Positions 3,767-61,959 of a DNA stretch of 64,000 bases are shown here, in pieces. Under the pieces are notes generated by a model, which saw only the letters and a list, made by a program, of their open reading frames with translations, searched no databases and had not been told where the DNA came from. Positions within the stretch are counted from its first letter, which is position 1. The number at the start of each line of letters is the position of its first letter. The translations under genes and the position numbers were made by a program. Source of the DNA: a phage; sequence record PX436236.1, one strand, 5' to 3'.

Positions 3767-3976
3767 TTACTTTGAACTAGAACGCGCTTTGCGCCGAACC
3801 TTGTTGTTCAATCTTTTACGATAAACAACCTTTTCTTTCGCTTTAAATTTGGCCTTGGCTTGTTCTACATCAACCCATGCTTTGGCCATGTCCTTAGCGG
3901 TCCCGCCCATTTTTTTAGCAATTTCTATAAAATTCAACCCAGATTCGTGTAAAAAATGTACTTTAACCTTATCCAT
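3767..3976 (-). CDS. Small HTH-like basic protein (hypothetical)
   Basis: 69 aa from internal ATG (track ORF extends to 4015 without RBS); helix-turn-helix-like N-terminus and Lys/Arg-rich tail. Confidence 0.45.
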   Translation of the reverse strand: MDKVKVHFLHESGLNFIEIAKKMGGTAKDMAKAWVDVEQAKAKFKAKEKVVYRKRLNNKVRRKARSSSK

Positions 3977-4059
3977 AACAATTCTCTCGTTGAGTTGGTA
4001 AACCCATCTTAACATAGAATTTTTAACTTGTAAACAGGAATTTTGTACTTTAATGCAAA

Positions 4060-15477: not shown

Positions 15478-15768
15478 TTATTTACGGAACGAAATGAAAC
15501 CTGCTGTGGTCATTAGTGGTTGCTTTTTAACAAACACCGTAACCGAAATAGGAGCTTCGGATTCGAGTTGTCCTGTCACTACACCGTTAAAAATGTTTTC
15601 GGTTTGTTCTGGATAAGAAAAATTCTCAACAGGTCGGATATCAAACTGTTTGTCTTCACCGAAAACTCGACGTAATTCATTACCCACTGCACTGTCAAAC
15701 TCTTCAGAAGCAGGGATAACGTTTTCAACTACCAGTTCTTGACCATTAAAACGGAATGCAGATTTCAT
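15478..15768 (-). CDS. Hypothetical early protein downstream of alt (alt.-1 position)
   Basis: 96 aa; own early-type promoter and RBS GAGGAGAACATT upstream. Confidence 0.55.
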   Translation of the reverse strand: MKSAFRFNGQELVVENVIPASEEFDSAVGNELRRVFGEDKQFDIRPVENFSYPEQTENIFNGVVTGQLESEAPISVTVFVKKQPLMTTAGFISFRK

Positions 15769-15796
15769 AATGTTCTCCTCATGTTTGTGTAAGGTA

Positions 15797-15826
15797 ATAG
15801 TACCACATCCTTGTGGTGTTGTAAAC
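15797..15826 (-). promoter_or_regulatory. Early sigma70-type promoter (GTTTAC-N18-TACTAT)
   Basis: Minus-strand -35-like GTTTAC and -10-like TACTAT about 25 nt upstream of the 96-aa ORF start. Confidence 0.55.
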
Positions 15827-21938: not shown

Positions 21939-21960
21939 AATAATTCCTCTTTAATAACCT

Positions 21961-21968: not shown

Positions 21969-21974
21969 CCAGAA

Positions 21975-21990
21975 AAGGCCCGAAGGCCTT
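21975..21990 (-). terminator. UUCG-loop hairpin after the ligase-distal ORF
   Basis: mRNA-sense AAGGCC-UUCG-GGCCUU overlapping the stop codon, followed by UUUUCUGG. Confidence 0.55.
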
Positions 21991-22213: not shown

Positions 22214-23696
22214 ATGAATCGGCTTCCGTTTTATCGAAACGCCAACCTTTAATAGTTGGAAGGAAAATACTTACAGTATCAGTGCGTCCTTTAGAATGAA
22301 CCCACCCATTACATTCACAGTCGGCAATACGCCCAATCAACTTACCTTCACGGGCTTGTTTCATAAGAAGTTCACGGTCTAAATCAGGACGATCTTCCAA
22401 TGGAATCAATACCTTTTTACCAGATTTATCTTTCTTATGGGTGGTATCTTTAAAACCAGAACCACAGTCAGTTGTAATACGACGACAACGTGATACTAAC
22501 TCTATACCGCCAATCTTATTGGGGTCCTTCGAGTGTTCATAGTAACCTACTACTTCTAAAGCAATATCGATTACTTCTTTGAACTTGATAAGATTCTTAG
22601 AACGGCGGTTCTCCCAGTAGGAGTCCATGTTCTTAAGGATAATACCTTCCAAGCGTTTACCGATATATTTCTTATAAACCGCTTTAGCTTCAGCCAAATT
22701 GTTAACCCATTGGTTTTCAATAGCTTCAACACGCGTTGTACCATGCAATACGACATTATGGGCAACCATAAGTTCTAAGGCTGTAAAGCGTACATCATAC
22801 TTATCGCCTTTAATTTTACCTTCGGAATATACGACATCCAATGGGACATAATCCCATGCCTGTAATACCATACCTGCGGCTTCGGTCGGAGTAATAGTTC
22901 CTTGAAGAGCCTTGTTAGCCAAGCCGTTTGAAGTGGAACGATCGGCGACAGTTTGGAATTCCTTAGCCTTACTTAATTCAGGAAGTTCCTCATCAAACAT
23001 ACTAAACAAATCATTAGATGCTTTAGGTTCTACTTTAGGAGTATGGTAAACTAATTCACCATCAATCATAACACCATTAGGATGACGTTGACGAGCTTCT
23101 TCGGTCATCACCATTAATTCAGCAGCTAAAAGATGAAGCCCTTGGTATTCATTACCACCACGAGTAAGGAACGTCACACCATCATTACGAACTTCAGCAA
23201 AACAACGAGCGCCATCAGCTTTTAATTGAGCAAACGCTGGCCATTTAATATTTTTCTTAATCAAAGCTTCATCATAAGAACTCGCCAACATCTGCGGTTG
23301 TTCAGGGATTAAACCTTTCCAAACCTTGTTAGCAATAGAAATCGATGCACCACATTCAAGGTCGCGCATCATTACACGACGTAATACCTCGGCATCCGGG
23401 GCCTTAGCATCAGCAATGATTTGAGCCAGTTCTTCAATAGCCGCATTACCCGTAATCTTACGTGTGGCTAATGTGAATTCAGCGAAATCAAGAAGGTCTT
23501 CAAGAGTAATCATACCAAAGGATTGAGATGTAAATCCAGGTTCTGGCCACTTTTTAATACCGTAGTTCAGACGACGGGTATAAGCCATACGATAAACACG
23601 TTTCAGAAGCTCATTGTTCTTTTCACGAGCAATAATGGCTTCTTTAGCTTTAGTAGAATCAATAGCAGCAATTTCGTTTAAAATATCTAAAATCAT
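22173..23696 (-). CDS. 30: ATP-dependent DNA ligase gp30
   Basis: 507 aa from internal ATG with RBS GAGGTG; matches remembered T4 ligase throughout (MILKILNEIA.., FAQLKADGARCFAEV, ECNGW). Confidence 0.9.
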   Translation of the reverse strand: MILDILNEIAAIDSTKAKEAIIAREKNNELLKRVYRMAYTRRLNYGIKKWPEPGFTSQSFGMITLEDLLDFAEFTLATRKITGNAAIEELAQIIADAKAPDAEVLRRVMMRDLECGASISIANKVWKGLIPEQPQMLASSYDEALIKKNIKWPAFAQLKADGARCFAEVRNDGVTFLTRGGNEYQGLHLLAAELMVMTEEARQRHPNGVMIDGELVYHTPKVEPKASNDLFSMFDEELPELSKAKEFQTVADRSTSNGLANKALQGTITPTEAAGMVLQAWDYVPLDVVYSEGKIKGDKYDVRFTALELMVAHNVVLHGTTRVEAIENQWVNNLAEAKAVYKKYIGKRLEGIILKNMDSYWENRRSKNLIKFKEVIDIALEVVGYYEHSKDPNKIGGIELVSRCRRITTDCGSGFKDTTHKKDKSGKKVLIPLEDRPDLDRELLMKQAREGKLIGRIADCECNGWVHSKGRTDTVSIFLPTIKGWRFDKTEADSFEDVFGDWSQTGL

Positions 23697-23706
23697 AATC
23701 ACCTCA

Positions 23707-23985
23707 TTAGTCATGGATTCTATTATAAGCCACATCAGCCAAAAGCAAGTCTAATCGCTTATGATAAGAGAACACAAATCTCATTCGCCCATCAGATTTG
23801 AACTTGGACATAAAGTGGACATAAATGAATCCCTGTTCGACGCATTCGCGCCAAACAGGATGGTCTTTAGCCGGATTTACATCAAATGAGTAATCATGAT
23901 TCACATGACGAATAAACTGGTTTACATGACCATAATCCATTGTAGTGGTAGGACCATAGTCTGAAATTGTATGAACTACAAACAT
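23707..23985 (-). CDS. Hypothetical protein (30.1 region)
   Basis: 92 aa from internal ATG with RBS GAGG. Confidence 0.5.
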   Translation of the reverse strand: MFVVHTISDYGPTTTMDYGHVNQFIRHVNHDYSFDVNPAKDHPVWRECVEQGFIYVHFMSKFKSDGRMRFVFSYHKRLDLLLADVAYNRIHD

Positions 23986-25768: not shown

Positions 25769-25783
25769 AATATTTTCCTCAAA

Positions 25784-25809: not shown

Positions 25810-26175
25810 TTAGATATCGAATTCGTTCAGAACTACATCAAAGATTGCTTCCAGGTGTTCAGGTTTAGCTCGGTTGCTCAGGATGTGACGAATCCAGGTT
25901 TTAACCAGAAGCTTACGATTAACGCCGTTCCAGCAAGGATGAGTACCTAAATCACGTTGACGGAAATCATCATCTAAAGCTATTTTAAAAGAAGAACCTT
26001 CTTTAGTGATTGAAAGAGTGATACCATTTTCAAAGCGCATATAAACGTAGTTAGGAGACATGCACTGTTCGATTTCGCACACCGCGCCGTTGTTGTGTTT
26101 CCACAGGCAAATAACTTCAGAAGAACCAGCGATACCGTTAGAAACATATTTACGTTCGAAGTTGATGTAGTTCAT
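25810..26175 (-). CDS. Hypothetical protein
   Basis: 121 aa; RBS AAACAAACTGGAGAATAAA identical to that of the next upstream gene. Confidence 0.5.
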   Translation of the reverse strand: MNYINFERKYVSNGIAGSSEVICLWKHNNGAVCEIEQCMSPNYVYMRFENGITLSITKEGSSFKIALDDDFRQRDLGTHPCWNGVNRKLLVKTWIRHILSNRAKPEHLEAIFDVVLNEFDI

Positions 26176-26216
26176 TTTATTCTCCAGTTTGTTTTCGTAT
26201 TATTTGGTACAGGTCT

Positions 26217-26246
26217 ATAATAACACAACCTGTACCAAAGTAAAAC
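26217..26246 (-). promoter_or_regulatory. Early promoter cassette with inverted repeat (PeSL-like)
   Basis: Minus-strand GTTTTAC-N17-TATTAT; the -10 sits inside an 11-bp perfect inverted repeat (26204-26214 / 26228-26238). Confidence 0.55.
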
Positions 26247-26248: not shown

Positions 26249-26581
26249 TTATTTCACAACATTCCAATTTTTCATATCAAGTTTACCAACTTTTTTCATC
26301 TGAGCAATCAGACGTTCAGCACGTGTACGGGCATTAACATAATAGAATTCACCATTTTTGTTTTCTTCAATACGACCAGTAATTACAGTTTTCAGTTCAT
26401 AAATCCAACCTGTAAAGAAGTTGTGAAGCTCGATGGTGAATGTAAAATCAGTACCCATACCTTCAGTTGTTTCAACTTCGATGATATCACCTTCAACTGC
26501 AGTCAGGACCCACATGGTTTCTTGATATTCACCGTTGAAACATTTAGCTTTAACAGATGCATTCAGATTTACAGTTTTCAT
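26249..26581 (-). CDS. Hypothetical protein
   Basis: 110 aa; promoter-leader nearly identical to that at 26176-26246. Confidence 0.5.
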   Translation of the reverse strand: MKTVNLNASVKAKCFNGEYQETMWVLTAVEGDIIEVETTEGMGTDFTFTIELHNFFTGWIYELKTVITGRIEENKNGEFYYVNARTRAERLIAQMKKVGKLDMKNWNVVK

Positions 26582-26622
26582 TTTATTCTCCAGTTTGTTT
26601 TAGTATTATTTGGTACATGTCT

Positions 26623-26651
26623 ATAGTATCATGCCTACCGGAGATGTACAC
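26623..26651 (-). promoter_or_regulatory. Early promoter cassette (duplicate of the 26217-26246 cassette)
   Basis: Minus-strand GTGTAC-N17-TACTAT; the flanking about 45 nt is near-identical to 26176-26220. Confidence 0.5.
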
Positions 26652-26679
26652 CCTTTTTTAAAGATTTAGAAACAAAAAT

Positions 26680-26697
26680 GGGACTCCGAAGAGTCCC
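26680..26697 (-). terminator. Intrinsic terminator with UUCG loop
   Basis: mRNA-sense GGGACUC-UUCG-GAGUCCC followed by AUUUUUGUUUC. Confidence 0.7.
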
Positions 26698-28439: not shown

Positions 28440-28462
28440 TTTGTTTCCTTCAATTAGGATGC

Positions 28463-28768
28463 TTAGCCTTCGATTTTTATATAATCAATGCGGACAATAT
28501 ACTTGGTTTCGCCGCCACGAGTTTCTTTACGAACTTCACGGACTAATACCAATTCTGGGTTTACATTTACCAATTGGTCAATAACATATTCGATATCACT
28601 AGTAGAATGAGTCGAAATTTCGCCAGTAGAATTGCCTTTAAGCTGTTCAATAACATAAAGTGGACCTACTTTAATAGATTTGATACCTTTTTGGAGAAGA
28701 GCATCAATAAATGTATCTGTGTAATCAACAGTAACCACTTGTTTAGGTTTTTCAAATAAAATATTCAT
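28463..28768 (-). CDS. Hypothetical protein
   Basis: 101 aa ORF; TAATG overlap with cd. Confidence 0.5.
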   Translation of the reverse strand: MNILFEKPKQVVTVDYTDTFIDALLQKGIKSIKVGPLYVIEQLKGNSTGEISTHSTSDIEYVIDQLVNVNPELVLVREVRKETRGGETKYIVRIDYIKIEG

Positions 28769-29543: not shown

Positions 29544-30097
29544 TAGATGGTCTCCAACTTAAGTTGTTTGGTAGTGGTAGCTTGGGTAACGTCGCCTTTA
29601 ACAATATAACACACTTGTTGGAACGACTTAGTCAAAAGCTCTTCAGCCTGACGATCGGCTTGTTCCTTTGTGTTATGGCGAGAATGAACTTCAATCTTAC
29701 CATTTTTAACAATAAGCACTTTCCAATCGGCCGTAGCTTTTACTGGCTTAGGTTCTGGCTTTACAGCAATACTCGTAGTAGCCAGTGGACGTACTACTTC
29801 AATAAAGTATTCGAATTCATGGGCAAAGGCGCCTACTGAATTAAAAAGAACACTAGTTGCATCATCGGGATTACCTGTGATTTTGCTCAGGTCAACAAAC
29901 ATCAACTCATCGTATACACGAATTCGGCTTACACGTGGCTTCCCGTTATGGTAATCAATTTCAACTTCAAACGGGTTCATACCTACATACTTGGCAAAAG
30001 CTGTATTGAGGCCGTAAGCGCCGTTATTAGTGAATTTGTTTTTAGTGTATTCACCAACGAACTTATAAAACTTACGCTCTTCAAAGAACTGGCTCAT
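29543..30097 (-). CDS. Hypothetical protein
   Basis: 184 aa from internal ATG with RBS GAGGAAA; early promoter upstream. Confidence 0.5.
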   Translation of the reverse strand: MSQFFEERKFYKFVGEYTKNKFTNNGAYGLNTAFAKYVGMNPFEVEIDYHNGKPRVSRIRVYDELMFVDLSKITGNPDDATSVLFNSVGAFAHEFEYFIEVVRPLATTSIAVKPEPKPVKATADWKVLIVKNGKIEVHSRHNTKEQADRQAEELLTKSFQQVCYIVKGDVTQATTTKQLKLETI

Positions 30098-30127
30098 TTC
30101 GATTTCCTCATTTGTTTCGGTAGGACT

Positions 30128-30157
30128 ACTATACCACAGTCCTACCATAGTGTAAAC
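30128..30157 (-). promoter_or_regulatory. Early promoter cassette with inverted repeat (PeSL-like)
   Basis: Minus-strand GTTTAC-N18-TATAGT; -10 inside a 9-bp inverted repeat GGTAGGACT/AGTCCTACC (30119-30146). Confidence 0.55.
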
Positions 30158-30851: not shown

Positions 30852-32091
<1,240 letters not shown>

Positions 32092-32863: not shown

Positions 32864-33351
32864 TTGGTAATAATCTCGATGATGTCATCACGTGACAGGG
32901 AATTAATAAGAACCGTTTTAGGATTTTCACACTGAATTTTATACGTTTCAAACATAAAACATAATTCTTCAGCAGTATGGTAAGGACTTGAAATGCCAAG
33001 GCGATTAAACTTGTCGCTTAATGGGTCACAAATCAAATAGAAAGTGATGCCTGAGATTTTAACATTAGGTTGGCTAATATTAATGAACACCTCGGCATCG
33101 TACTTGGAAAGGTTGTTTCGGAGAAACTCAACCATAGAGTTAACAGCTTCGGGCATGGCTTCACGCTTTTCTTCTGCATAACGGGTAGAGTATTCTTTTT
33201 GCTTGATTTTCTTTTTAGCATTTTTAGCTAAAGTAACACGAAGATCGGTCAGGTAACCTACTGCACGAGAACCTTTAAAAACTTGGATGCCGTCAGTAGA
33301 GTCACCAAAAGCCTTAACAACCATTTCGTTAGTAATCATTTGCATATTCAT
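32851..33351 (-). CDS. alc: Alc-like host transcription inhibitor
   Basis: 166 aa (T4 Alc is about 167 aa); position between rnlA and the spanins. Confidence 0.55.
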   Translation of the reverse strand: MNMQMITNEMVVKAFGDSTDGIQVFKGSRAVGYLTDLRVTLAKNAKKKIKQKEYSTRYAEEKREAMPEAVNSMVEFLRNNLSKYDAEVFINISQPNVKISGITFYLICDPLSDKFNRLGISSPYHTAEELCFMFETYKIQCENPKTVLINSLSRDDIIEIITKCLN

Positions 33352-33381
33352 TTTGTTTTCTCCTCATTAGTTGGTAAGTCT

Positions 33382-33410
33382 ATACTAACACGTCATGAGG
33401 AGATGTAAAC
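33382..33410 (-). promoter_or_regulatory. Early promoter cassette
   Basis: Minus-strand GTTTAC-N17-TAGTAT followed by the conserved leader and RBS for alc. Confidence 0.5.
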
Positions 33411-38538: not shown

Positions 38539-38611
38539 TGGACTGATATTTATAGAATGAAATTCAGTCCGACCATAATAACCAAAAACAGAGTACAGAT
38601 TATTTGAATTT

Positions 38612-40294
<1,683 letters not shown>

Positions 40295-40319
40295 TTTATT
40301 CTCCTTAGTTGATAAGGCT

Positions 40320-40349
40320 ATAGTATCACTACCATAGCCTGGTGTAAAC
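40320..40349 (-). promoter_or_regulatory. Early promoter cassette with inverted repeat (PeSL-like)
   Basis: Minus-strand GTTTAC-N18-TACTAT; 7-bp inverted repeat AGGCTAT/ATAGCCT (40315-40340) around the -10. Confidence 0.55.
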
Positions 40350-40595
40350 TTATTTTTGAATTAAGCCCATATAAAATTTAGCGTCTTCCGGGTGCATACC
40401 GTCACAATACTCGTCAGCCATAAAGCGGGTAAGGTCTTCAAGAGGACCTTGGACTTCAATTTGCATACTACAGAATTGGGTATCTTTAATATGGGTCATA
40501 ACTAAAGAAGGATAACGATTACGGATAACTTCGTAAGTGTATTCAAAATCAACGATATCAATATTAACCTTAGCCATTTTATTTTCCTCACTCAT
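40350..40595 (-). CDS. Hypothetical protein
   Basis: 81 aa; conserved leader and RBS GAGGAAAAT. Confidence 0.5.
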
Positions 40596-40609
40596 TAGTT
40601 GATAGGTCT

Positions 40610-40638
40610 ATAGTATCATGTTTAAAGGCATTGTAAAC
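40610..40638 (-). promoter_or_regulatory. Early promoter cassette
   Basis: Minus-strand GTTTAC-N17-TACTAT within the conserved motif GTTGATAGGTCTATAGTATCA. Confidence 0.55.
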
Positions 40639-40640
40639 AC

Positions 40641-40901
40641 TTATTTTTGAATTTTATCAAGCCATTTACCAAGTTTAATCATTTCTTTGGTAGCTTTTTC
40701 CATACTTCTAAATTTAACCAGTAAAGGTTGGGCATCAACACCCATAACTAAGGTGGTTACAAGACTATGTTCACCTACAAGCCATAATGAATAAGTTTGG
40801 ATATCGAGCCCGTAATTTCGGTCTTTATGAACTCGTACACCCATCACTTCAAATTTCTCACTGGCTTTTTCTACTGCATCCAGGAAATCATCTTTAGTCA
40901 T
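40641..40901 (-). CDS. Hypothetical protein
   Basis: 86 aa from ATG with RBS AAGG (the track ORF starts at an upstream TTG). Confidence 0.45.
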   Translation of the reverse strand: MTKDDFLDAVEKASEKFEVMGVRVHKDRNYGLDIQTYSLWLVGEHSLVTTLVMGVDAQPLLVKFRSMEKATKEMIKLGKWLDKIQK

Positions 40902-40902
40902 A

Positions 40903-41292
40903 TTAGGCCTTAAAAGTTTTTTGCAAAAGTTCAATGATTTGGTCAACGTTCTGTTCGGTGACAATGCAATGGATTTGAGTCACACCGGCCTTAGCAATAG
41001 GCTCATCGATTTCTTTATCTTCCACAACATATTCACGGAAGCAATAGAACTCGTCTTCATGCAACTCAAAATAATTTGGCGCCAACCCAACTTCATTATA
41101 AATCTCGCCGTTAGCGCATTCGATTTCAGTCACAAATTTGTCGCCATCCATAGTCACCATATCCTTTACTTCAAACCAACCGCCGTTGTCTTGGATAAGG
41201 CCGACCATGCTTTTATTATTTTCATATTCGTCCATTTCAATAAAGTCTTTAATGCATTCAGGACGAAGTTCATAAGTTTTACCGATTTCCAT
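40903..41292 (-). CDS. Hypothetical protein
   Basis: 129 aa acidic protein; conserved early leader. Confidence 0.5.
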   Translation of the reverse strand: MEIGKTYELRPECIKDFIEMDEYENNKSMVGLIQDNGGWFEVKDMVTMDGDKFVTEIECANGEIYNEVGLAPNYFELHEDEFYCFREYVVEDKEIDEPIAKAGVTQIHCIVTEQNVDQIIELLQKTFKA

Positions 41293-41320
41293 TTTATTTC
41301 CTCATGTAGTTGATAGGTCT

Positions 41321-41349
41321 ATAGTATCACGTTTAAAGGCGTTGTAAAC
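41321..41349 (-). promoter_or_regulatory. Early promoter cassette
   Basis: Minus-strand GTTTAC-N17-TACTAT. Confidence 0.55.
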
Positions 41350-41365
41350 CATTAAATGCCAAAAA

Positions 41366-41385
41366 GGGAAGACCGAAGTCTTCCC
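41366..41385 (-). terminator. Intrinsic terminator after gene 32
   Basis: mRNA-sense GGGAAGAC-UUCG-GUCUUCCC followed by UUUUU. Confidence 0.7.
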
Positions 41386-43609: not shown

Positions 43610-44557
43610 TTAATAAAAATCAGCTACTGTAGCAGTTAGTTTAGACAAACCAGATTTAACGAAATAAGGATAAACTTTAGATTTCGAAGGTTTGTTATAC
43701 GTATTATATCTTTCAGTAATTAAAGCAACAATATCATCTGGAATAAAGTCCATATCAATTAAGATTTGGTTTTCACAGAAACGTTCATATTGTTCTTCAG
43801 TAAGAAGTGTTTTAATTATATCATGGTCGTAATAATTCAGAGCAATTGCTTCAAGTTCCTTGGCACGAGTGCTAGGAGTACGTTCGCCTTCAACCATCGT
43901 CAACCAGTAATCACCACGAACTTTAATACTCGCGACGTTATCCTTGCGGTCGCCTTTAACAACCTTAGTTACACAATCTAATAATGAATCGCCAGATTTT
44001 GTTTTGACGAATTTTTTCTGCATTGGAGACCATTGTTTTACCCCAGGGAATTTATGGAGTTGAGTAAAGTCGCCATCCGAAGAACCAATCATAACTGGAT
44101 GGCCTAAAGCCGTGAGGATTCGGGTTAAAACAGCAATATGGTCATCAGCTTCGATTGTATCGATATTCATAACAATATAAGGCATGTTTTGTTCCAGTTC
44201 ATCAACAATAATATGCATTGCTGTGAATAAACCTTCCCAATCAAATGGTGATTCGTCACGTGCCTTAGCACGGTTTTTCTTATAATAAGGTGAATAGCGA
44301 CGACGCCAATAACCTGATTTAGAGTTATCAACACAAATAACCAGTTGGTTGTACCCCTGTTTTTTAAAGTCTTTAATATTTTTCTTAATTGAATTCAACA
44401 CGAGGTGTCGAAGCATTGCTGTAGTTACTTTAGGAAATCCAGCATTCTCACCAAACTCTTGGAAAGCTGCAGCCATAATGATTTGGCTGAAATCTAGGAG
44501 TAAAAATCCATCTTTTTGTTGGTCTTCTTCAGGAAGTAAAAAATCTAAATCGTTCAT
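43610..44557 (-). CDS. rnh: RNase H (5-prime to 3-prime exonuclease)
   Basis: 316 aa from internal ATG with RBS GAGG; conserved blocks (IDFSQI, GYWRR, ADDHIAVL, SSDGDFTQLHK, RTPS). Confidence 0.9.
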   Translation of the reverse strand: MNDLDFLLPEEDQQKDGFLLLDFSQIIMAAAFQEFGENAGFPKVTTAMLRHLVLNSIKKNIKDFKKQGYNQLVICVDNSKSGYWRRRYSPYYKKNRAKARDESPFDWEGLFTAMHIIVDELEQNMPYIVMNIDTIEADDHIAVLTRILTALGHPVMIGSSDGDFTQLHKFPGVKQWSPMQKKFVKTKSGDSLLDCVTKVVKGDRKDNVASIKVRGDYWLTMVEGERTPSTRAKELEAIALNYYDHDIIKTLLTEEQYERFCENQILIDMDFIPDDIVALITERYNTYNKPSKSKVYPYFVKSGLSKLTATVADFY

Positions 44558-44588
44558 ATGAACCTCTGTCCAATTAGTGTAGAGGTTC

Positions 44589-44617
44589 ATTATATCACGA
44601 CCCTAGAAGAAGTAAAC
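44589..44617 (-). promoter_or_regulatory. Early promoter for rnh
   Basis: Minus-strand GTTTAC-N17-TATAAT; the -10 overlaps the track's upstream ATG, which supports the downstream start at 44557. Confidence 0.5.
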
Positions 44618-50575: not shown

Positions 50576-53500
50576 ATGGCTACTTTAAAGCAAATCCAAT
50601 TTAAAAGAAGCAAAGTAGCCGGTGTACGTCCGGCACCGGCCCAGTTGGCTGAAGGCGAACTGGCTATTAACTTAAAGGACCGATTACTTTTTACTAAAGA
50701 CGATACTGGAGCGATTATCGACCTTGGCTTTGCTAAAGGTGGTAATATTGACGGCAATGTTATTCATACCGGTAACTACAACCAGACTGGCGATTACACC
50801 CTAAATGGTACCTTTACCCAAACAGGTGATTTTAATTTAACCGGTATTGCTCGTGTAACTCGTGACATTATTGCCGCTGGCCAGATAATGACCGAAGGCG
50901 GCGAGCTTATTTCTAAGAGTGCATCGACGTCCCATTTGAGATTTTTTGACGGCGCATCCCGCGAACGTGGCATTATCTTTTCGCCAAATAATGCTGGAGC
51001 GACCACTCAGGTAGTTAATATTCGCGTACAAGATTATGCGACAAGTGGCGAAAGCACCTACGCGTTTTCAGGCAATGGTGTGTTTTCTTCCCCTGAAGTT
51101 TTTGGATGGAAATCTGTATCAACTCCGGTAATTTATACCAATAAAGTTATTACTAATAAAAAGGTTAAAGGTGATTATGATATCTATTCAATGGCCGATA
51201 ATACCCCATTGGCAGAAAGTGAAACAGCTATTAACCACCTTCGTGTTATGCGAAATGCCGTTAGTTCGAGCATTTTCCATGAAGTTAAAGATAATGACGG
51301 AATAACCTGGTATGCCGGCGACGGCTTAGAAGCTTATCTTTGGTCATTTACCTGGTCCGGTGGATTGAAAGCAGGCCATTCTATTTCTGTAGGCACCCCA
51401 GGTAACTCTAAAGGATATTCTGAATTAGGAACGGCTTCAATTGCTCTTGGCGATAATGACACCGGGTTAAAATGGCATCAGGATGGATATTATTTCAGCG
51501 TTAATAACGGCACGAGAACTTTCCTGTACGGCCCTGCAGAAACCACCAGTCTTAGAAAAATGGTTATGGGTTATTCTGTAAACGGTACCGATTTAACCAC
51601 TCCTCCGTCGGAAAACTATGCTTTGGCGACGGTTGTCACTTATCATGATAATAACGCGTATGGCGACGGTCAAACTCTTTTAGGTTATTATCAAGGTGGC
51701 AATTATCACCACTATTTCCGTGGTAAGGGTACTACAAACGTTAACACCGCTGGTGGTTTGTTAGTTACTCCTGGTAATATTGATGTTGTTGGTGGTTCGG
51801 TTAATATTGATGGCCGCAACAATGCTTCTACACTAATGTTCAGAGGAAATACTACAGGAAGTAGTTCAGTTGATAATATGACTATCAGCGTTTGGGGTAA
51901 TACCTTTACTAATGTTGATGGCGACCGTAAAAACGTAATGGAAATATCTGATGCTACTAGCTGGATGCAATATATTCAACGAACAACTGCTGGTAAAGTC
52001 GAATCGGTTCTAAATGGCACCCAGATTGTTAATGAAAACTTGACTGTAGTAAAAAATGCTACATTTGACGGTACAATCAGCGCAGCCGGTGAAATCGCGA
52101 CAAATGCTGTAAATGGTCTTCGTATTTGGAACAATGATTACGGTGCCATTTTTAGACGTTCAGAAGGAAGTCTTCATATTATTCCAACTGCTTACGGTGA
52201 AGGTAAAAATGGTGATATCGGACCACTTCGTCCATTTAGTTTGGCTTTAGATACCGGTAAGGTTGTTATTCCTGACCTAGATTTGAGTTATGCTTCTTTT
52301 GCAGCAAACGGCTATATTAAATTCGGTGGACATGGTGCAGGTGCAGGCGGTTACGATATTCAATATGCACAAGCAGCTCCTGTTTTCCAAGAAATTGATG
52401 ATGACGCGGTAAGTAAATATTATCCTATTGTTAAGCAGAAATTCTTACAAGGAAAAGCTGTTTGGTCTTTAGGTACTGAAATTAATTCCGGGACTTTTGT
52501 TTTGCATCATTACAAAGAAGACGGGACCCAAGGTCATACATCAAGATTTAATGCTGATGGTACAGTTAATTTCCCGGATAACGTGCAGGTTGGCGGTGGC
52601 GAAGCTACTATTAGCAAAAATGGTAACATCTGGTCTGATATCTGGAAAACGTTTACTTCTGCCGGTGATGTAACCAATCTTCTTGGTGCTGTCTATAGCC
52701 GTGTTTCTAAAGAAGGCGACACAATGACAGGCCGCTTAACTCTTAATGCAAACTCGGATGCTATTGTTATTAACAGTGCTGCAACCGAATCTGGTTATGT
52801 GAAAGGACAAAAAGCAGGCGTTAATAACTGGTATGTTGGTAATGGCGGCGCTGATAACGCCCTATCGTTTTATAGTTTCCAAACTAATTCAGGCGTTAAT
52901 ATTCATAATAGTGGAGAAGTTGGTTTAGCTCCTCAAGGGGCGGATACTTTTTATTTTAATAGGGACCGTCTTTATATAAAGGCTTCACAATGGGCTGCAC
53001 ACCAAGCTGGCGATTGGGGAACTCAATGGAAGCAAGAAGCTCCGGTGTTTGTAGATTTTGGTAATGTTGGTAATGATAGTTATTATCCGATTATCAAAGG
53101 AAAATCTGGTATTACTAATGAAGGATATGTATCGGGTGTTGATTTCGGTATGCGTCGTATTACTAATACATGGGCCCAAGCTATTATCCGTGTTGGTAAC
53201 CAGGAAAATGGCAACGATCCTGCAGGTATTTTCGAATTCCACTCTAGTGGTTTATTTTACGCCCCGTCTTTAGTCCAGACTCCTGCAATTGGTGTTGGTA
53301 CTGTTAATGGATTAGGCTCTCCTAGTATTGCTATTGGTGATAACGACACAGGATTATCGCATGGTGGTGACGGCCGAATCAATATGGTTGCCAATGGTAT
53401 GCATATTGCTTCATGGTCTAGTTCTTACCATATCCATGAAGGTCTTTGGGATACCACTGGTGCTTTGTGGACTGAAACAGGAAGAGCTATTATTTCTTTT

Positions 53501-53896
53501 GGTCATTTAATCCAACAAAGCGATGCCTATTCAACATTTGTCCGTGACGTTTATGTTCGTTCTGATATTCGTGTTAAAAAAGACCTTGTTAAATTTGAAA
53601 ATGCTTCTGAGAAGCTTTCTAAAATTAACGGCTACACTTATATGCAGAAACGTGGCCTGGATGAAGAAGGTAATCAGAAATGGGAACCTAACGCTGGTTT
53701 AATTGCTCAAGAAGTTCAAGCTATTTTACCTGAATTGGTTGAAGGCGACCCTGATGGTGAAGCTTTACTTCGTTTGAACTATAACGGTGTAATTGGTTTA
53801 AATACAGCTGCAATCAATGAGCACACTGCAGAAATAGCAGAATTGAAATCAGAGATTGAAGAACTTAAAGCATTAATTAAATCATTGTTAAAATAA
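50576..53896 (+). CDS. 37: Long tail fibre distal subunit gp37 with C-terminal intramolecular-chaperone-like domain
   Basis: 1106 aa; N-terminal fibre motifs; C-terminal about 110 aa contains SDIRVKKD and a coiled-coil tail resembling self-cleaving tail-fibre chaperone domains. Confidence 0.85.
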
Positions 53897-53901
53897 TAAG
53901 A

Positions 53902-53915
53902 GGGGCTTCGGCCCC
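53902..53915 (+). promoter_or_regulatory. C(UUCG)G stem-loop between genes 37 and 38
   Basis: GGGGC-UUCG-GCCCC with no following U tract; the gp38 RBS GGAGG follows immediately. Confidence 0.45.
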
Positions 53916-53927
53916 TTGGAGGTTTAT

Positions 53928-54725
53928 ATGGCAGTAGCAGGACCGTGGATAGGAACTTCTGCAAGGGCGCAGACAGGAGACCCTTGGATGGCAGGAGCCG
54001 CTGTAAGATTAAGAATGGGTGTCCCATTTTGGATGAGTAATATGAACGGTCGGTCTGTTGAAGTAATTCACACCATAACAGCAAACCATAATTTTAATGG
54101 CCAGTGGTTCCGCGACCGCTGTTTTGAAGCAGGCAGCGCACCTATTGTGTTTAATATCACAGGCGATATAGTATCTTACGACCGTAATGTTCCATTGTTC
54201 TTTATGAATGCCGACACACCTAATGAATATGTCAATTTGACTATTCATGGAGGCGTGCATATGTGGGGTCGAGGTGGCCACGGTGGGTGGACCCATTCAG
54301 GTGGCGACGGTAACGGTCAATGGGGCGGTGATTGTATAGTCAACCATATAGGTCATAGACTACGTATTTGGAACTATGGGGTTATCTGTGGCGGTGGTGG
54401 TGGCGGTGGTGGCATTGCGTATCGTCCTCACTCAGGTGCTAACTGGCAAGATATCGGTGGTGGTGGTGGACGTCCATTTGGTCCTGGTGGCGGTGGTGGA
54501 TACTCCGGTGGTGGTGCTTCTTATGAAAGCCCTGGCGGTGGATACGATTATGGTAATGCCCACTCAGGTCGTGGCGGTGATGCTGGCGGCGCTGGCGGCA
54601 ACGCATGGAATGATGGTGGTAAAGTTCTTAAAGTTGGGGCTGGGGGCGGTTCTGGGGCTGCTGTTGCCGTTTCTGCTCCTGCATGGGGCGCGACAGGTAC
54701 GATTTACGGTCCTTGGCTTAGTTAA
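53928..54725 (+). CDS. 38: Receptor-recognising adhesin gp38 (T2/T6 type, glycine-rich motifs)
   Basis: 265 aa from ATG with RBS GGAGG (track uses upstream TTG); conserved N-terminal block [27 protein letters not shown] and multiple poly-Gly motifs. Confidence 0.85.
54391..54413 (+). repeat. (GGY)n simple repeat encoding poly-Gly in gp38
   Basis: GCGGTGGTGGTGGCGGTGGTGGC run; similar shorter runs nearby. Confidence 0.6.
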
Positions 54726-55410: not shown

Positions 55411-55682
55411 AAATTGGAGGTATACATCATTAAATAACGGTGTATATCTTCATATCCTTCATTAAATTGCTCAATAAGAGTGTCACGTTCATCTTCAGTT
55501 AAAGACTTAAATAATTTGTTATAAGACAAACCATTAAGTTCCTTTCCATGTTCATTACGAATACCCAACTCATTCAAAAAGGCAATAAACTCATCACGAC
55601 GTTGCATGATGTCTTCACAATCCGTTTTAATCAAAATGGAAACAATAGTAGCAATTTCGGAAACAATTTCAATTTTAGTCAT
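55407..55682 (-). CDS. asiA: Anti-sigma70 factor AsiA
   Basis: 91 aa; matches remembered T4 AsiA (ASILIK, FIAFLNE.G, LI..FNEG.E...RYL.MYT). Confidence 0.9.
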   Translation of the reverse strand: MTKIEIVSEIATIVSILIKTDCEDIMQRRDEFIAFLNELGIRNEHGKELNGLSYNKLFKSLTEDERDTLIEQFNEGYEDIHRYLMMYTSNF

Positions 55683-55723
55683 AATATTCTCTTCAATTCA
55701 GTACGTCATTATCTGATAGGGCT

Positions 55724-55752
55724 ATACTAACATATCCTTAGGGATTGTAAAC
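55724..55752 (-). promoter_or_regulatory. Early promoter cassette for asiA
   Basis: Minus-strand GTTTAC-N17-TAGTAT. Confidence 0.55.
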
Positions 55753-57430: not shown

Positions 57431-58066
57431 TCAGATAATTGCGTTGGTTACGGTTTTGATAACTTCAGATGATACGTTTTGGAAGTCGATATAAGTATTC
57501 TTACCACCAGTCTTAATCTTAACATCAAGATTCAAGGAAGTAAACACTTGTTTTTCTTTATCAGTCATATTATAACCGAAGATGCGCATCATTCCGTCAC
57601 GACGGACTTCAATTTGACGAATACCATTGGTACGTTTGGCGAATCGAACTTCAAGGTTGCTACGGTTTTCAGCAATTTCACGAATCTCGATACGGTCTTC
57701 TAATAAAGCTTTAACTTCATCAGCCAGTGTTACCATTTCAGGAGTAACACCACGTGAACTACGCGTTTTACGTTTTTCCAACATCTCTGGGGCATTTTCA
57801 GAAGCGAACAGGTCGGCAGCTTTTTGAACTAGGTCCATTGCTTCACCTGTAGCCACTAGTCCGTCACCAGATTTTTCGATGAATCCTTTCTTAATTAATA
57901 CACCGATATTAGAGTTAACTACCGCAGCACTAAATTGCTCACTCAGGGCTTCACGGACTTCGCCTGAAGTGATGAAGTTATGCTTGATGATATGTACTAA
58001 GATCGAAGCCGTTTTTTCATTCAGGGCGTCTTCAGAAGCTTTGATGATATAAGTAATTTTAGACAT
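57431..58066 (-). CDS. motA: Middle transcription activator MotA
   Basis: 211 aa, same length as T4 MotA; near-identical N-terminus (MSKITYIIKAS.D.LNEKTA...NSNIGVLIKKG..EKSGDGL) and RTNGIR/RIFGY blocks. Confidence 0.9.
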   Translation of the reverse strand: MSKITYIIKASEDALNEKTASILVHIIKHNFITSGEVREALSEQFSAAVVNSNIGVLIKKGFIEKSGDGLVATGEAMDLVQKAADLFASENAPEMLEKRKTRSSRGVTPEMVTLADEVKALLEDRIEIREIAENRSNLEVRFAKRTNGIRQIEVRRDGMMRIFGYNMTDKEKQVFTSLNLDVKIKTGGKNTYIDFQNVSSEVIKTVTNAII

Positions 58067-58101
58067 TTTGTATCTCCGATAACCATTTATTTGATAGGTC
58101 T

Positions 58102-58130
58102 ATAGTATCATGTTTAAAGCAGATGTAAAC
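58102..58130 (-). promoter_or_regulatory. Early promoter cassette for motA
   Basis: Minus-strand GTTTAC-N17-TACTAT. Confidence 0.55.
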
Positions 58131-58154
58131 TCTTTTTGCACTAAACCTAAAAAA

Positions 58155-58170
58155 GGAACCCGAAGGTTCC
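58155..58170 (-). terminator. Intrinsic terminator with UUCG loop
   Basis: mRNA-sense GGAACC-UUCG-GGUUCC followed by UUUUUU. Confidence 0.7.
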
Positions 58171-59987: not shown

Positions 59988-60436
59988 TAGTAAGCCTGCA
60001 GGATGAATTTAAAGTTATCAGCCAACATACGGTTCATTTCTTCCAGTGTCTGGAGGTCGGAACTATGATTACGAGTGAAAGCCATTGCAATTTGACCCTT
60101 ACCAAAACCTGTAGTCAGGGGTTTCATCTTAGAAGCCGGTACATAAAGAACTTCATACACAACACCGTTCACTGCCATAGTGCGAGCTGATTGAGAACGT
60201 TTCTTACGAATGTTAGCCACGATACCGTCGAGCCCTTGGGCCGAACGTTGATTACCGACATAAAAACGAGCCGCTACGACACGAGAATCAGCACCACCTT
60301 TAACAAAGAAGTAGAAGCCTGGTTGAGCAGAGATTTCTTTAGAAGGTTTACCATTTTGGTATTCACCGTTCTTAACATAAGCAACAGTAGTAGCACCAGC
60401 AGACAGAACGTTACGGCGAGTCATATAAGTATTCAT
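59987..60436 (-). CDS. ndd: Nucleoid disruption protein Ndd
   Basis: 149 aa; C-terminal half near-identical to remembered T4 Ndd ([56 protein letters not shown]). Confidence 0.9.
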
Positions 60437-60485
60437 ATCAATTTCCTCAGTAGATTAATGTTTTGTTATCCAGTCAACGAGAACC

Positions 60486-60514
60486 ATTATAACATGATTC
60501 TCGAGGTTGTAAAC
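60486..60514 (-). promoter_or_regulatory. Early promoter for ndd
   Basis: Minus-strand GTTTAC-N17-TATAAT (perfect -10). Confidence 0.6.
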
Positions 60515-61091: not shown

Positions 61092-61208
61092 TCAGAAGTT
61101 AAAGAATACACGTACATGGTCAATCATAAAAACGATTGGGAAAATGCTCAATACCATTAACAACACAAACATGTTCCAAATTGCTTTAAGTAAGTTTTTC
61201 ATAATCAT
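61092..61208 (-). CDS. Small hydrophobic peptide
   Basis: 38 aa ORF (MIMKNLLKAIWNMFVLLMVLSIFPIVFMIDHVRVFFNF) with RBS GGAG; below the track cutoff. Confidence 0.35.
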   Translation of the reverse strand: MIMKNLLKAIWNMFVLLMVLSIFPIVFMIDHVRVFFNF

Positions 61209-61228
61209 CTCCATTAGTTGATAGGTCT

Positions 61229-61257
61229 ATAATACCATGATTAATGGAGATGTATAC
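61229..61257 (-). promoter_or_regulatory. Early promoter cassette
   Basis: Minus-strand GTATAC-N17-TATTAT in the conserved GTTGATAGGTCTAT motif. Confidence 0.5.
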
Positions 61258-61347: not shown

Positions 61348-61614
61348 TCAAAACACCACCTCTTTTATCTCAATTAATCCCCTGTGCAATGCAGTACGAA
61401 GGTCATAAAGAATATCTATGCCGTCAACATTATCCAGTTTTCCATCAATAAGCTTTTCTAAATCTTCCTTTGATGCGATTAAGGGACGGAGAAATTTACA
61501 TTCAGAAAGAGATAACTCTGTAGTAACATCACCACCTTCACCTGATGCATCATACATAGCGGCAACAACCATACCTGTAACTTTGTGTTTAGCGTAATAT
61601 AATTTGATATCCAT
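61348..61614 (-). CDS. Hypothetical protein
   Basis: 88 aa ORF with conserved early leader. Confidence 0.5.
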   Translation of the reverse strand: MDIKLYYAKHKVTGMVVAAMYDASGEGGDVTTELSLSECKFLRPLIASKEDLEKLIDGKLDNVDGIDILYDLRTALHRGLIEIKEVVF

Positions 61615-61642
61615 TTTGTTCTCCTCATTAGTTGATAGGAAG

Positions 61643-61671
61643 ATAGTAACACCGTCCGTGGCATTATAACT
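61643..61671 (-). promoter_or_regulatory. Degenerate early promoter cassette
   Basis: Conserved TACTAT -10 and leader, but the -35 region is replaced by AGTTAT/TATAAT-like sequence. Confidence 0.35.
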
Positions 61672-61898
61672 TAAGCAACAGAATGTTTTGGATGCTGTTT
61701 AGCCCAACCTACTAAAAATTCCCAATACTTTTCGATAGAACCGTAAAGATTAATTACTGTAGGAGTGGTAACTTCAGTCCAATCTTTTTGAACATTACCC
61801 GTTTTAATATTGGTAAGCTTGTGAAACACTTTACCATTCTCAAATTTATATTCTTCGATTTTACGATTGATTGCTTTAACATAAGTAATAGAAGTCAT
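61671..61898 (-). CDS. Hypothetical protein
   Basis: 75 aa from internal ATG with conserved leader GAGGAAAATATT. Confidence 0.5.
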   Translation of the reverse strand: MTSITYVKAINRKIEEYKFENGKVFHKLTNIKTGNVQKDWTEVTTPTVINLYGSIEKYWEFLVGWAKQHPKHSVA

Positions 61899-61929
61899 AA
61901 TATTTTCCTCTCGTGTAGTTGATAGGAAG

Positions 61930-61959
61930 ATAGTAACACCATCCATGGCGTATGTAAAT
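61930..61959 (-). promoter_or_regulatory. Early promoter cassette
   Basis: Minus-strand ATTTAC-N18-TACTAT. Confidence 0.5.

Follow-up and report, generated by a model that had tools for sequence, protein, structure and literature searches.

Why is one promoter repeated, nearly unchanged, through the early-gene regions of a phage genome, and why does the similarity among its copies reach beyond what a promoter needs? The question arises at the frd locus (40,292-41,385) of sequence record PX436236.1, 64,000 nucleotides of phage DNA that we analysed at full length and call the window, where such cassettes precede frd.1, frd.2 and frd.3. An initial annotation had listed 14 of them and likened them to the promoter-early-stem-loop (PeSL) cassettes of T4-type phages.

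A family of early promoter cassettes

The motif is there at each of the 14 listed positions, always on the minus strand, and in every copy TGnTAnn[A/G]T lies at a constant offset from the coordinate given, which confirms the family. A search for TACTATAGACCTATCAAC with up to three mismatches returned 9 matches against 0.03 expected by chance, and GTTTAC-N16-19-TANTAT returned 7 against 0.35; matches so far above expectation rule out chance as the cause of the family. An HMM trained on the 14 cassette copies and run on both strands recovered every training copy (E 1e-13 to 6e-7) and gave no match at E<1 on the plus strand. It also detected a 15th copy at 61626-61667, which keeps TGn, the -10 and CTTCCTATCAACTA and has no -35. 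A 16th early promoter, more diverged and missing from the original list, was found at 4006-4035, 5' of gp24.3. The features are as follows, with the position by which a copy is named in the text given in brackets.

3974..4035, minus strand: diverged early-type promoter 5' of gp24.3 (GTTTAC, TGT, TAAGAT)
15766..15826, minus strand: early promoter cassette 5' of alt.-3 (15797)
26173..26245, minus strand: early promoter cassette 5' of 30.7 (26217)
26579..26697, minus strand: early promoter cassette 5' of 30.8 (26623), with an upstream terminator hairpin at 26680-26697
30095..30157, minus strand: early promoter cassette 5' of a 184-aa ORF, JS98 orf212-like (30128)
33349..33410, minus strand: early promoter cassette 5' of alc (33382)
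40292..40349, minus strand: early promoter cassette 5' of frd.1 (40320); -35 GTTTAC 40344-40349, TGA and -10 TACTAT 40320-40328, leader AGCCTTATCAACTAAGGAGAATAAAATG, ATG 40294
40575..40638, minus strand: early promoter cassette 5' of frd.3 (40610); -35 40633-40638, -10 40610-40615, ATG 40577
41290..41349, minus strand: early promoter cassette 5' of frd.2 (41321); -35 41344-41349, -10 41321-41326, ATG 41292
41366..41385, minus strand: gene 32 terminator hairpin, GGGAAGACTTCGGTCTTCCC then TTTTT
44555..44617, minus strand: early promoter 5' of rnh (44589), -10 TATAAT
55680..55752, minus strand: early promoter 5' of asiA (55724)
58064..58170, minus strand: early promoter cassette 5' of motA (58102), with an upstream terminator hairpin at 58155-58170
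60434..60514, minus strand: early promoter 5' of ndd (60486)
61200..61257, minus strand: early promoter 5' of a 36-aa membrane ORF, ndd.4-like (61229)
61612..61667, minus strand: half-cassette with TGT, TACTAT and CTTCCTATCAACTA, without -35 (61643)
61671..61959, minus strand: full cassette (61930) and the 75-aa ORF that it drives (61671-61898); -35 61954-61959, -10 61930-61935

The elements follow a common order over 45-60 bp: AT-rich upstream DNA, GTTTAC(A), a spacer of 17-18 nt, TGn, TAcTAT, AGaCCTATCAAcTA, a ribosome-binding site and the ATG. The -35, which aligns with TTGACA at a spacing of 16-18 nt, is exactly GTTTAC in 11 of the 15 copies that have one, the other four carrying a single mismatch (TTTTAC, GTGTAC, GTATAC, ATTTAC). 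None of the 15 HMM-detected copies lacks TGn or TAnnnT, the TG lies at -15/-14 in all copies, and the -10 is TACTAT in 9 of 16. Between -60 and -38 the A+T content is 75%, against 60% for the whole window, as befits an UP-like region. The half-cassette at 61643 was also considered as a MotA-dependent middle promoter and rejected, as its TGCTT is 23 nt from the -10 and a MotA box needs 11-13 nt.

Some details of the initial description had to be corrected. The leader that it took as characteristic, GAGGAAAATATT-ATG, belongs to one cassette only (61930); it recurs exactly at 25769 and 61082, but there as a ribosome-binding site without a promoter, and typical leaders read (A)TGAGGA(G)AA..AAAATG or GGAGAATAAAATG. 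The spacer motif said to occur often (TTTAAAC; plus strand TTTAAAGG, gene strand CCTTTAAAC) is found in three copies only, 40610, 41321 and 58102. As for the block after the -10, four to five copies have it as exactly AGACCTATCAA, but the remainder carry variants.

The window belongs to a Dhakavirus, that is, a JS98-like T4-type phage, and is 99.6% identical to phage E33 and 99.2% to QL01. Downstream of its cassettes lie orthologues of genes that are early in T4 (motA, asiA, alc, ndd, frd.1-3, 30.7/30.8, alt.-3 and rnh), and all copies are on the early-gene strand, with none inside the late-gene blocks. Moreover, the T4 promoters at 30.7, alt.-3, alc, motA, frd.1 and Pe133295 match the cassette HMM, and T4 early promoters have the core TGnTAcTAT..CTATCAACTA in common with the window cassettes. 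The arrangement of -35, TGn, -10 and AT-rich upstream DNA is that of T4 early promoters (PMC2988021, PMC1524935), which are of the UP/-35/TGn/-10 kind and have further consensus regions (PMC2988021). The likeness covers the -35 GTTTAC, the TGn, the -10 TAyTAT and the A/T-rich region, the (C)TATCAACTA block after the -10, the orthologous early genes downstream (motA, alc, alt.-3, 30.7, frd.1) and, in a subset, hairpins between spacer and downstream sequence. The two sets differ in that Dhakavirus varies less in the block that follows the -10 (15 of 39 JS98 promoters have AGACCTATCAA exactly, against 0 of 19 T4 promoters) and has a slightly less strict -35 (1.0 vs 1.5 bits/position).

Phage identity, architecture, early-gene orthologues and T4 HMM matches together support the initial reading of the cassettes as T4-type early promoters. 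They are very probably sigma-70-dependent Dhakavirus early promoters, each fused to the leader and ribosome-binding site of its first gene, and as such they are a known T-even early promoter type, expected in a phage of this kind. We read the start sites, the early timing and the strength of the promoters from the sequence and from T4 homology. Host RNA polymerase would bind the AT-rich UP-like region, the -35 GTTTAC(A), the extended -10 TGn and the -10 TAcTAT, and transcription would start, judging from position only, about 7 nt past the -10, at the A of ATCAAC. Starting there, it would yield unstructured leaders of 20-45 nt in which the GAGG/GGAG ribosome-binding site is open.

Conservation beyond the promoter hexamers

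When the copies are aligned, conservation runs past both the -35 and the -10. In the window set the mean is 1.48 bits/position for the -10 hexamer, 1.05 for -6..-1, 0.82 for +1..+9 and 0.53 for the spacer. The excess claimed over the needs of a promoter is largely explained by known or testable layers: extra T4-type consensus positions, the RegB/S1 consensus in some leaders, sequence swapped among the copies and an RNA hairpin inside the promoter. The first is a discriminator and initial-transcribed block, (AGAC)CTATCAAcTA, common to T4 early promoters. In the next, GGAGAAYAAAA leaders match the RegB/S1 cleavage consensus, RegB cutting inactivating early mRNAs. Exchange of sequence among copies would keep the cassettes alike, and in about half of the promoters the spacer is complementary to the ribosome-binding site or to what directly follows the -10.

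The consensus for RegB is GG*AGRAYARAA (PMC3014915). Its 11 nucleotides are matched exactly in 4 of 16 leaders, namely 26217, where the leader ends in GGAGAATAAAATG, 26623, 40320 (GGAGAATAAAA) and 61643 (GGAGAACAAAA), and partially at 15797, 33382 and 58102; the regB gene is present in JS98. These four leaders resemble the RegB/S1 targets of T4 early leaders in placing a candidate GGAGRAYARAA at the translation initiation region, whereas most of the remaining window cassettes have GAGGAAA-type sites without GGAG.

A different reading of the conserved stretch from -6 to about +9 (AGACCTATCAAcTA) makes it an operator for a phage protein, for example a factor that shuts off early promoters within minutes of infection. 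Its 0.8-1.05 bits/position exceed both the spacer and the equivalent positions in T4, the distribution of exact AGACCTATCAA between JS98 and T4 suggests a lineage-specific elaboration, and the mechanism of early-promoter shut-off is not completely understood (PMC3014915). Nevertheless, we consider an operator improbable, for the block has no palindrome, is missing from the functional-looking cassettes 15797, 30128, 44589 and 60486, and no candidate binding protein was found. Exchange between copies, together with effects of the discriminator and initial-transcribed sequence on RNA polymerase, is a simpler account.

Stem-loops, gene indels and exchange between copies

A PeSL is by definition a composite with a terminator stem-loop just 5' of the promoter, and PeSL-like sequences are on record for JS98 as well as for the pair T4/PST, their consensus being TTTACW-N17-TAYWAT (PMC2839356, PMC4122927). 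The window cassettes have the sigma-70-like promoter, the AT-rich upstream DNA and the end in a ribosome-binding site and ATG, but the upstream terminator in only 3 of 15, so that the PeSL label fits in part. The three are 26623, 41321 and 58102, each with a UUCG-loop hairpin and a T run. At 41321 it is the gene 32 terminator that adjoins the frd.2 promoter on its upstream side, which makes a true PeSL-style composite of terminator and promoter. The remaining 12 of 15 cassettes have no upstream stem-loop (upstream folds z > -2, no T run), and in these the promoter directly adjoins the stop codon of the ORF before it. Like the PeSLs of RB49/phi1, PST/T4 and nt-1/KVP40 (Arbiol 2010; Comeau 2014), the window cassettes are repeated units of promoter and ribosome-binding site amid small early ORFs; they share the T4/PST-type promoter consensus, and some ORF indels among close relatives are bounded by two copies, with half-copies left at the junctions. 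Unlike PeSLs, they mostly lack the defining upstream stem-loop, in many of the others a stem-loop overlaps the promoter and uses the spacer as its 5' arm, and most indels in the window do not involve them.

The initial annotation had also assigned the cassettes a role in gene shuffling. Two clean cassette-to-cassette indels relative to related phages, at 58090-58137 and 61662-61903, are examples of it, but among some 17 gene indels the majority break elsewhere. The motA cassette is duplicated in JS98, where a stem-loop precedes each copy and the two flank orf253; the window has a single copy without orf253. The 75-aa ORF (61671-61898) is a module bounded by cassette repeats, the full cassette and the half-cassette (61612..61667) that forms the downstream boundary of the inserted ORF. 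JS98 has one copy there and no ORF, the 61671..61959 module is missing from most Dhakavirus records, and at least 80% of the segment is present in only 7 phage records. One further indel (41278-41295) ends within a cassette leader. Relative to JS98 and QL01, most of the approximately 17 indels break at homologies of 5-18 bp in ribosome-binding sites, start codons and stop-start overlaps, with no promoter involved, and 12 of 14 cassettes have the same location in the window and JS98 and are nearly unchanged. At the position of asiA, the JS98 promoter sequence is not the same as that of the window. A search of viral contigs anchored on alc (12 loci) found at least four different arrangements upstream of this gene across genera, among them the 30128 cassette of the window, and the order of frd.2 and frd.3 is not alike in T4 and Dhakavirus.

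Exchange has also left traces within cassettes. The 30.8 cassette (26623) is chimeric, its part downstream of TATAGAC sharing 40 of 42 positions with the 30.7 leader and its spacer being of another type. The frd.3 cassette (40610) has a spacer of the CCTTTAAAC type that is unlike its JS98 orthologue and identical to that of the adjacent frd.2-type cassette, which suggests sequence conversion between copies.

Taken strictly, the PeSL reading would make the cassettes mobile terminator-plus-promoter modules whose main role is the insertion, deletion and exchange of small ORFs, by recombination from cassette to cassette or through mini-circles. The three UUCG-loop composites speak for it, as do orf253 between its two stem-loop-bearing copies, the narrowly distributed 75-aa ORF, the genus-dependent cassette type at alc, the unlike gene order at frd and the earlier reports of PeSL-like sequences in JS98 and T4/PST. 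We find this reading rather doubtful, however, in view of the 12 cassettes without an upstream stem-loop, the start- and stop-codon homologies at which most indels break and the stability of most positions relative to JS98. The comparison is better described by saying that the cassettes appear to act occasionally as recombination sites, because no other repeated patches in the early regions are as long, and that a few mark the boundaries of gene gain or loss. Homologous recombination among them would now and then add, remove or swap modules of promoter and ORF. Since only 2-3 of the roughly 17 indels involve cassettes, recombination would be a side effect and not their main role.

Hairpins embedded in the promoters

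In about half of the early promoters of the window, JS98 and T4, the spacer pairs with the sequence after the -10 or with the ribosome-binding site. At 26217 the -10 is bracketed by a 12-bp inverted repeat (TTTGGTACAGGT / ACCTGTACCAAA), at 30128 by a hairpin of 9-10 bp (GGTAGGACT / AGTCCTACC) and at 60486 by the pair CGAGAAtC / GgTTCTCG, while in the frd.1 cassette the spacer AGGCTAT is complementary to ATAGCCT directly after the -10. In the alc cassette the spacer (TCTCCTCAT) is complementary to the ribosome-binding site (ATGAGGAGA); the read-through RNA has a fold of -17.4 kcal/mol (z -3.5) in which the ribosome-binding site is base-paired, and the primary transcript is unstructured. Similarly, the spacer of 61229 (CATCTCCATTA) is complementary to TAATGGAGATG, covering the ribosome-binding site, and the read-through fold reaches -18.6 kcal/mol (z -4.6). 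The hairpin at rnh (GAACCTCT...AGAGGTTC) is formed by the leader itself and spans the ribosome-binding site. About half of the promoters, the frd.3 cassette among them, have no embedded hairpin.

We compared the duplex energy of spacer and downstream sequence taken from the same promoter with that of arms taken from different promoters. Mean energies for the same and for different promoters were -10.6 and -7.3 with the 15 window promoters, -10.9 and -7.9 with the 39 of JS98, and -12.8 and -7.5 with the 19 of T4, and permutation gave p<5e-5 for each of the three sets; related promoter copies are not independent samples, which should make the comparison conservative. Base composition was discarded as the source of the signal, as reversing either arm brought the energy to about -7.6, the level of different promoters. 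Moreover, the arms covary between promoters (CTCCTGTAG/CTACAGGAG, CTCCATTAG/CTAATGGAG, CTCCTCATG/CATGAGGAG), and among the strong hairpins the sense strand is stabler than the antisense strand in 9 of 10 T4 cases, 11 of 16 JS98 cases and 5 of 6 window cases, the T4 means being -18.9 vs -13.3 kcal/mol. Duplex energies, arm covariation and the bias towards the sense strand indicate that the pairing is probably kept by selection.

The inverted repeats could alternatively act as DNA, forming cruciforms or single-strand hairpins that serve in promoter melting, recombination or the priming of replication. Many stems are indeed perfect Watson-Crick repeats, equally able to form on either DNA strand, and the cassettes do participate in recombination. 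The systematic excess of sense over antisense stability, however, is the mark of G:U pairs, hence of pairing at the RNA level; several 3' arms follow the ribosome-binding site, an RNA-level signal as well, and the hairpins are weak where a terminator already stops read-through. We therefore regard a role as DNA as most improbable. Neither are the embedded hairpins intrinsic terminators, as no T run follows their stems, and an Rfam scan of the whole window at gathering thresholds found no known structured RNA family.

An RNA hairpin of this kind has a particular property: its 5' arm lies upstream of the predicted start site, so it can form only in RNA begun further upstream. Given that the pairing favours the sense RNA, it is probably a mark of read-through transcripts. 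In the predicted folds of read-through RNA the ribosome-binding site is paired at 33382, 61229 and 26623, and the primary transcripts fold at only 0 to -3 kcal/mol. The 3' arm covers the ribosome-binding site in several JS98 and T4 promoters too. Consistent with a function in read-through RNA, promoters preceded by a terminator, as called by a simple terminator detector, show pairing at background level (-8.3 vs -12.5 for the others, one-sided p=0.023). A 3' arm over the ribosome-binding site would silence both translation and RegB cutting of the read-through RNA, while RNA from the proximal promoter would stay active, free of the hairpin. At 26217, 30128, 40320 and 60486 the 3' arm stops short of the ribosome-binding site, so translational masking cannot explain those hairpins.

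The same promoter-in-hairpin logic has been described for the T4 late promoters of e, soc, 49 and I-TevI (PMC3014915). There, as here, the 5' strand of a helix sequestering the ribosome-binding site lies at or upstream of the proximal promoter, so that silencing by folding is open to the longer transcripts only and those from the proximal promoter stay open. The known cases concern late promoters and late-only translation, whereas in the window the promoter is early and early-only translation is predicted; the window also has a second class of hairpins, which leaves the ribosome-binding site uncovered. No description of a hairpin switch at early promoters was found in the reviews and PeSL papers, although the older T4 literature may mention one. 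We tentatively suggest, as a possibility somewhat short of even, that about half of the T-even-type early promoters, in Dhakavirus, T4 and at least one more genus, sit inside an RNA hairpin that folds read-through transcripts and silences them or shields them from RegB. It would be a genome-wide early counterpart of the late-gene switch, insulating transcription units as a terminator does.

For Dhakavirus phages that are candidates for therapy, the cassettes are useful for annotating early transcription units and for picking junctions at which engineering is safe. With the two cassette-bounded indels, one more independent lineage supports the view that repeated promoter cassettes can act as recombination sites, and in gene turnover here the short homologies at start and stop codons contribute more than the cassettes. 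If the hairpins do function in this way, RNA pairing and not contact with polymerase would constrain the variable spacer of these presumably strong promoters, and the expression of early genes would depend on where their transcript originates.

The cassette family and its promoter anatomy

On its minus strand, 40315-41349 contains an almost identical unit three times: GTTTACA, a 17-18 nt spacer, TGA-TACTAT, a sequence of the AG(A/C)CCTTATCAACTA type, then a ribosome-binding site and ATG. The initial annotation had placed this unit at 14 minus-strand positions, and we found it at every one, with TGnTAnn[A/G]T at one constant offset in all copies. The family is not a product of chance: the 18-mer that follows the -10 occurs nine times with up to 3 mismatches (0.03 expected), GTTTAC-N16-19-TANTAT occurs seven times (0.35 expected), and an HMM trained on the 14 copies recovers all of them (E 1e-13 to 6e-7), with no comparable match on the plus strand of the window. 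Two sites extend the set:

61626-61667: copy added by the HMM, without a -35
4006-4035: further promoter, more diverged

Some sequence details had been overstated. The CCTTTAAAC spacer, described as frequent, is present in three cassettes, and GAGGAAAATATT-ATG, proposed as a common leader, occurs in a single cassette (61930), its other two occurrences being promoterless ribosome-binding sites.

Sequence identity of the window is 99.6% with Escherichia phage vB_EcoM-E33, 99.2% with QL01 and 94% with JS98; these three phages belong to the genus Dhakavirus (Tevenvirinae). With names taken from the QL01 and JS98 annotations, the genes directly 3' of the cassettes are gp24.3, alt.-3, 30.7, 30.8, an orf212-like ORF, alc, frd.1, frd.3, frd.2, rnh, asiA, motA, ndd, an ndd.4-like 36-aa ORF, an orf262-like ORF and a 75-aa ORF confined to QL01-type phages. 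Each lies within minus-strand gene blocks; cassettes are absent from the plus-strand late blocks (head, baseplate, tail fibres). The frd order is 32 - frd.3 - frd.2 - frd.1 in T4 (146143-146802) and 32 - frd.2 - extra ORF - frd.3 - frd.1 in the window (40350-41292), where frd.1, frd.2 and frd.3 each have their own early promoter cassette ahead.

The cassettes are ordinary T4-type phage early promoters, with homologues in T4 and JS98 that match in sequence and position; where and when they start transcription would follow from the same homology. Promoters of this kind are already known: those of T4 are of the UP/-35/TGn/-10 type with additional regions of consensus (PMC2988021), with GTTTAC as the -35 (-36 to -31) and an A-rich stretch at -40 to -44 (PMC1524935). 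The assignment to T4-type early promoters made in the initial annotation agrees with this anatomy. In a generic sigma-70 scan, all three cassettes of 40315-41349 show TTTACA, a 16-17 nt spacer and TACTAT, with TG preceding the -10; A+T at -60 to -38 is 75%, against 60% for the window, and the 14-copy HMM matches T4's own early promoters. T4 shares with the window TG(G/A)TACTAT and, directly behind it, (A/C)C(A/C)CTATCAACTA; examples lie ahead of frd.1, motA, ndd.x, 30.7, alt.-3 and alc and at Pe133295. The block 3' of the -10 is thus not peculiar to this phage, although Dhakavirus copies of it vary less than those of T4: exact AGACCTATCAA is found in 15 of 39 JS98 promoters and 0 of 19 T4 promoters, and positions -6 to -1 carry 0.84-1.05 bits each, compared with 0.64 in T4, so that the similarity does reach past the -35 and -10 hexamers, as had been claimed. 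In JS98 (NC_010105), the orf253 coding sequence finishes ...ATTAAAGACCTATCAATCTAA (~164010-164030), placing AGACCTATCAA inside the ORF, perhaps left over from an earlier cassette junction.

Some of what is conserved in the leaders corresponds to an established signal, the strong RegB/S1 cleavage consensus GG*AGRAYARAA (PMC3014915). Four cassette leaders contain a match, GGAGAATAAAA or GGAGAACAAAA, and would presumably be cut; regB is encoded by JS98. No Rfam family matched anywhere in the window. A promoterless ribosome-binding-site and start unit, GAGGAAAATATTATG, is repeated on the minus strand at 61079-61106, 25769-25780 and 61899-61910. JS98 carries two copies, TCTGAGGAAAATATTATG and TCTTAGGAAAATATTATG, with a ~45-aa ORF inserted between them; at this point the window has only one.

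Upstream terminators and gene turnover

In a PeSL (promoter-early stem-loop), a terminator stem-loop stands just 5' of AT-rich DNA, after which come an early promoter, a ribosome-binding site and a start codon; such units are concentrated in plastic regions and are found where indels between close relatives begin or end (PMC2839356, PMC4122927). PeSL-like sequences have already been mentioned for JS98. Assigning the window cassettes to this class is borne out in part, by the promoter and ribosome-binding-site anatomy and by some recombination, but the defining terminator is missing from most. Only the cassettes at 26623, 41321 and 58102 have one upstream, in each case a UUCG-loop hairpin with a T run, so the strict definition covers a minority; that of 41321 is the gene 32 terminator (41366-41385). 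In the other twelve, the -35 comes straight after the stop codon of the ORF before it.

The cassettes were also proposed to be gene-shuffling modules, and they do appear to serve sometimes as recombination sites. JS98 orf253 has a GTTTACTTCTGCTTTAAACATGATACTATAGACCTATCAAA copy on both sides, with a stem-loop ahead of each; the window has one GTTTACTTCTGCTTTAAACATGATACTATAGACCTATCAAA copy before motA and lacks orf253. At the site of a single JS98 cassette, the window has the 75-aa ORF (61671-61898) with a full cassette on one side and a half-cassette on the other; of 335 matching phage records, only 7 hold at least 80% of this segment. The frd.2a/frd.2b duplication of JS98 ends at the start codon adjoining cassette 41321. 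Sequence has also been exchanged between copies: cassette 26623 is chimeric, its half 3' of TATAGAC equalling the 30.7 leader at 40 of 42 positions, and the spacer of 40610 is unlike that of its JS98 orthologue and the same as that of the neighbouring frd.2-type cassette. At least four distinct arrangements lie upstream of alc across genera, one being the GGTAGGACT...AGTCCTACC cassette found at 30128 in the window. In IMG/VR contigs L019 and L021 (167.8 and 162.1 kb; ~340-400), the promoter before alc (Alc 48% identical) is GTTTACATTATGGTAGGACTGTGATAAAATAGTCCTACCATAAC, the window's 30128 hairpin cassette, which in the window stands ahead of an unrelated ORF.

Most turnover, however, runs through other short homologies. 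Among about 17 indels surveyed against JS98 and QL01, the remaining ones have junctions at 5-18 bp homologies with no promoter involved, namely ribosome-binding sites, start codons and stop-start overlaps; one lies between two TCTGAGGAAAATATTATG copies. Gene-boundary microhomology is behind more events here than promoter cassettes. Moreover, 12 of the 14 cassettes sit in the same place in JS98, almost unchanged, which together with these junctions argues against a dominant recombination role. Positions of note in the window are:

25481, 28440-28759, 30850, 32043-32056, 38550-38555, 39466-39473, 40036-40047 and 59985: whole-gene indel junctions relative to JS98/QL01 (junction examples TGAGGAAATTATTATGAAA, AATAATGAA, TAATGA)
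~17200-23750, minus strand: three tandem alt-like ADP-ribosyltransferase genes, paralogues 65-88% similar; also the site of the largest rearrangements relative to JS98 and QL01
50800-54700, plus strand: distal tail-fibre (gp37) and adhesin genes, most diverged from QL01/JS98 (70-74% identity or unalignable), typical of host-range mosaicism

Predicted hairpins embedded in the promoters

In many copies the -35/-10 spacer has a complementary sequence 3' of the -10, a feature absent from the initial annotation. Exact spacer stems in the window measure 12, 11, 9, 9, 7, 6 and 6 bp, and only 3 of 210 pairings between different cassettes yield stems of at least 9 bp. In larger, curated promoter sets we compared the duplex energy of each spacer with the segment from the -10 to the start codon, within a promoter and between different promoters. 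Mean energies within and between were -10.9 and -7.9 kcal/mol in JS98 (n=39), -12.8 and -7.5 kcal/mol in T4 (n=19), and -10.6 and -7.3 kcal/mol in the window (n=15), with permutation p <5e-5 in each set. Pairing at -12 kcal/mol or stronger was seen in 40-53% of same-promoter and 9-13% of different-promoter pairs, and reversing either arm as a composition control gave about -7.6 kcal/mol.

Strong hairpins favour the sense strand in 9 of 10 cases in T4 (sense and antisense means -18.9 and -13.3), 11 of 16 in JS98 and 5 of 6 in the window. The greater stability of the sense strand suggests G:U pairs and hence hairpins formed in RNA. One class (26217, 30128, 40320, 60486) has its 3' arm directly after the -10 and leaves the ribosome-binding site free. 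In the other (33382, 61229, 26623 and many in JS98 and T4) the 3' arm lies over the ribosome-binding site, with matched variants CTCCTGTAG/CTACAGGAG, CTCCATTAG/CTAATGGAG and CTCCTCATG/CATGAGGAG. With its 5' arm lying ahead of the putative start site, the hairpin could form only in RNA begun upstream: predicted folds are -16 to -20 kcal/mol (z down to -4.6) for read-through RNA and 0 to -3 kcal/mol for transcripts begun at the cassette itself. Where a terminator already stands ahead of the promoter, pairing is only at background level (-8.3, as opposed to -12.5 in the remaining promoters; one-sided p=0.023), which would be consistent with a read-through-linked role. The primary leader of rnh (44555-44589, minus strand) differs from the unstructured primary leaders of the other cassettes in that it can form a predicted hairpin, GAACCTCT...AGAGGTTC, over the rnh ribosome-binding site.

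By sequence and homology, a 3' arm over the ribosome-binding site would mask translation in read-through RNA. Such an arrangement is established for the T4 genes e, soc, 49 and I-TevI, whose ribosome-binding site is sequestered in a helix with a late promoter inside its 5' strand (PMC3014915); the window hairpins would follow the same logic with early promoters, a version of which we found no description in the accessible literature. These embedded, covarying hairpins are the sole aspect of the cassettes that is possibly new, and they merit experiment.
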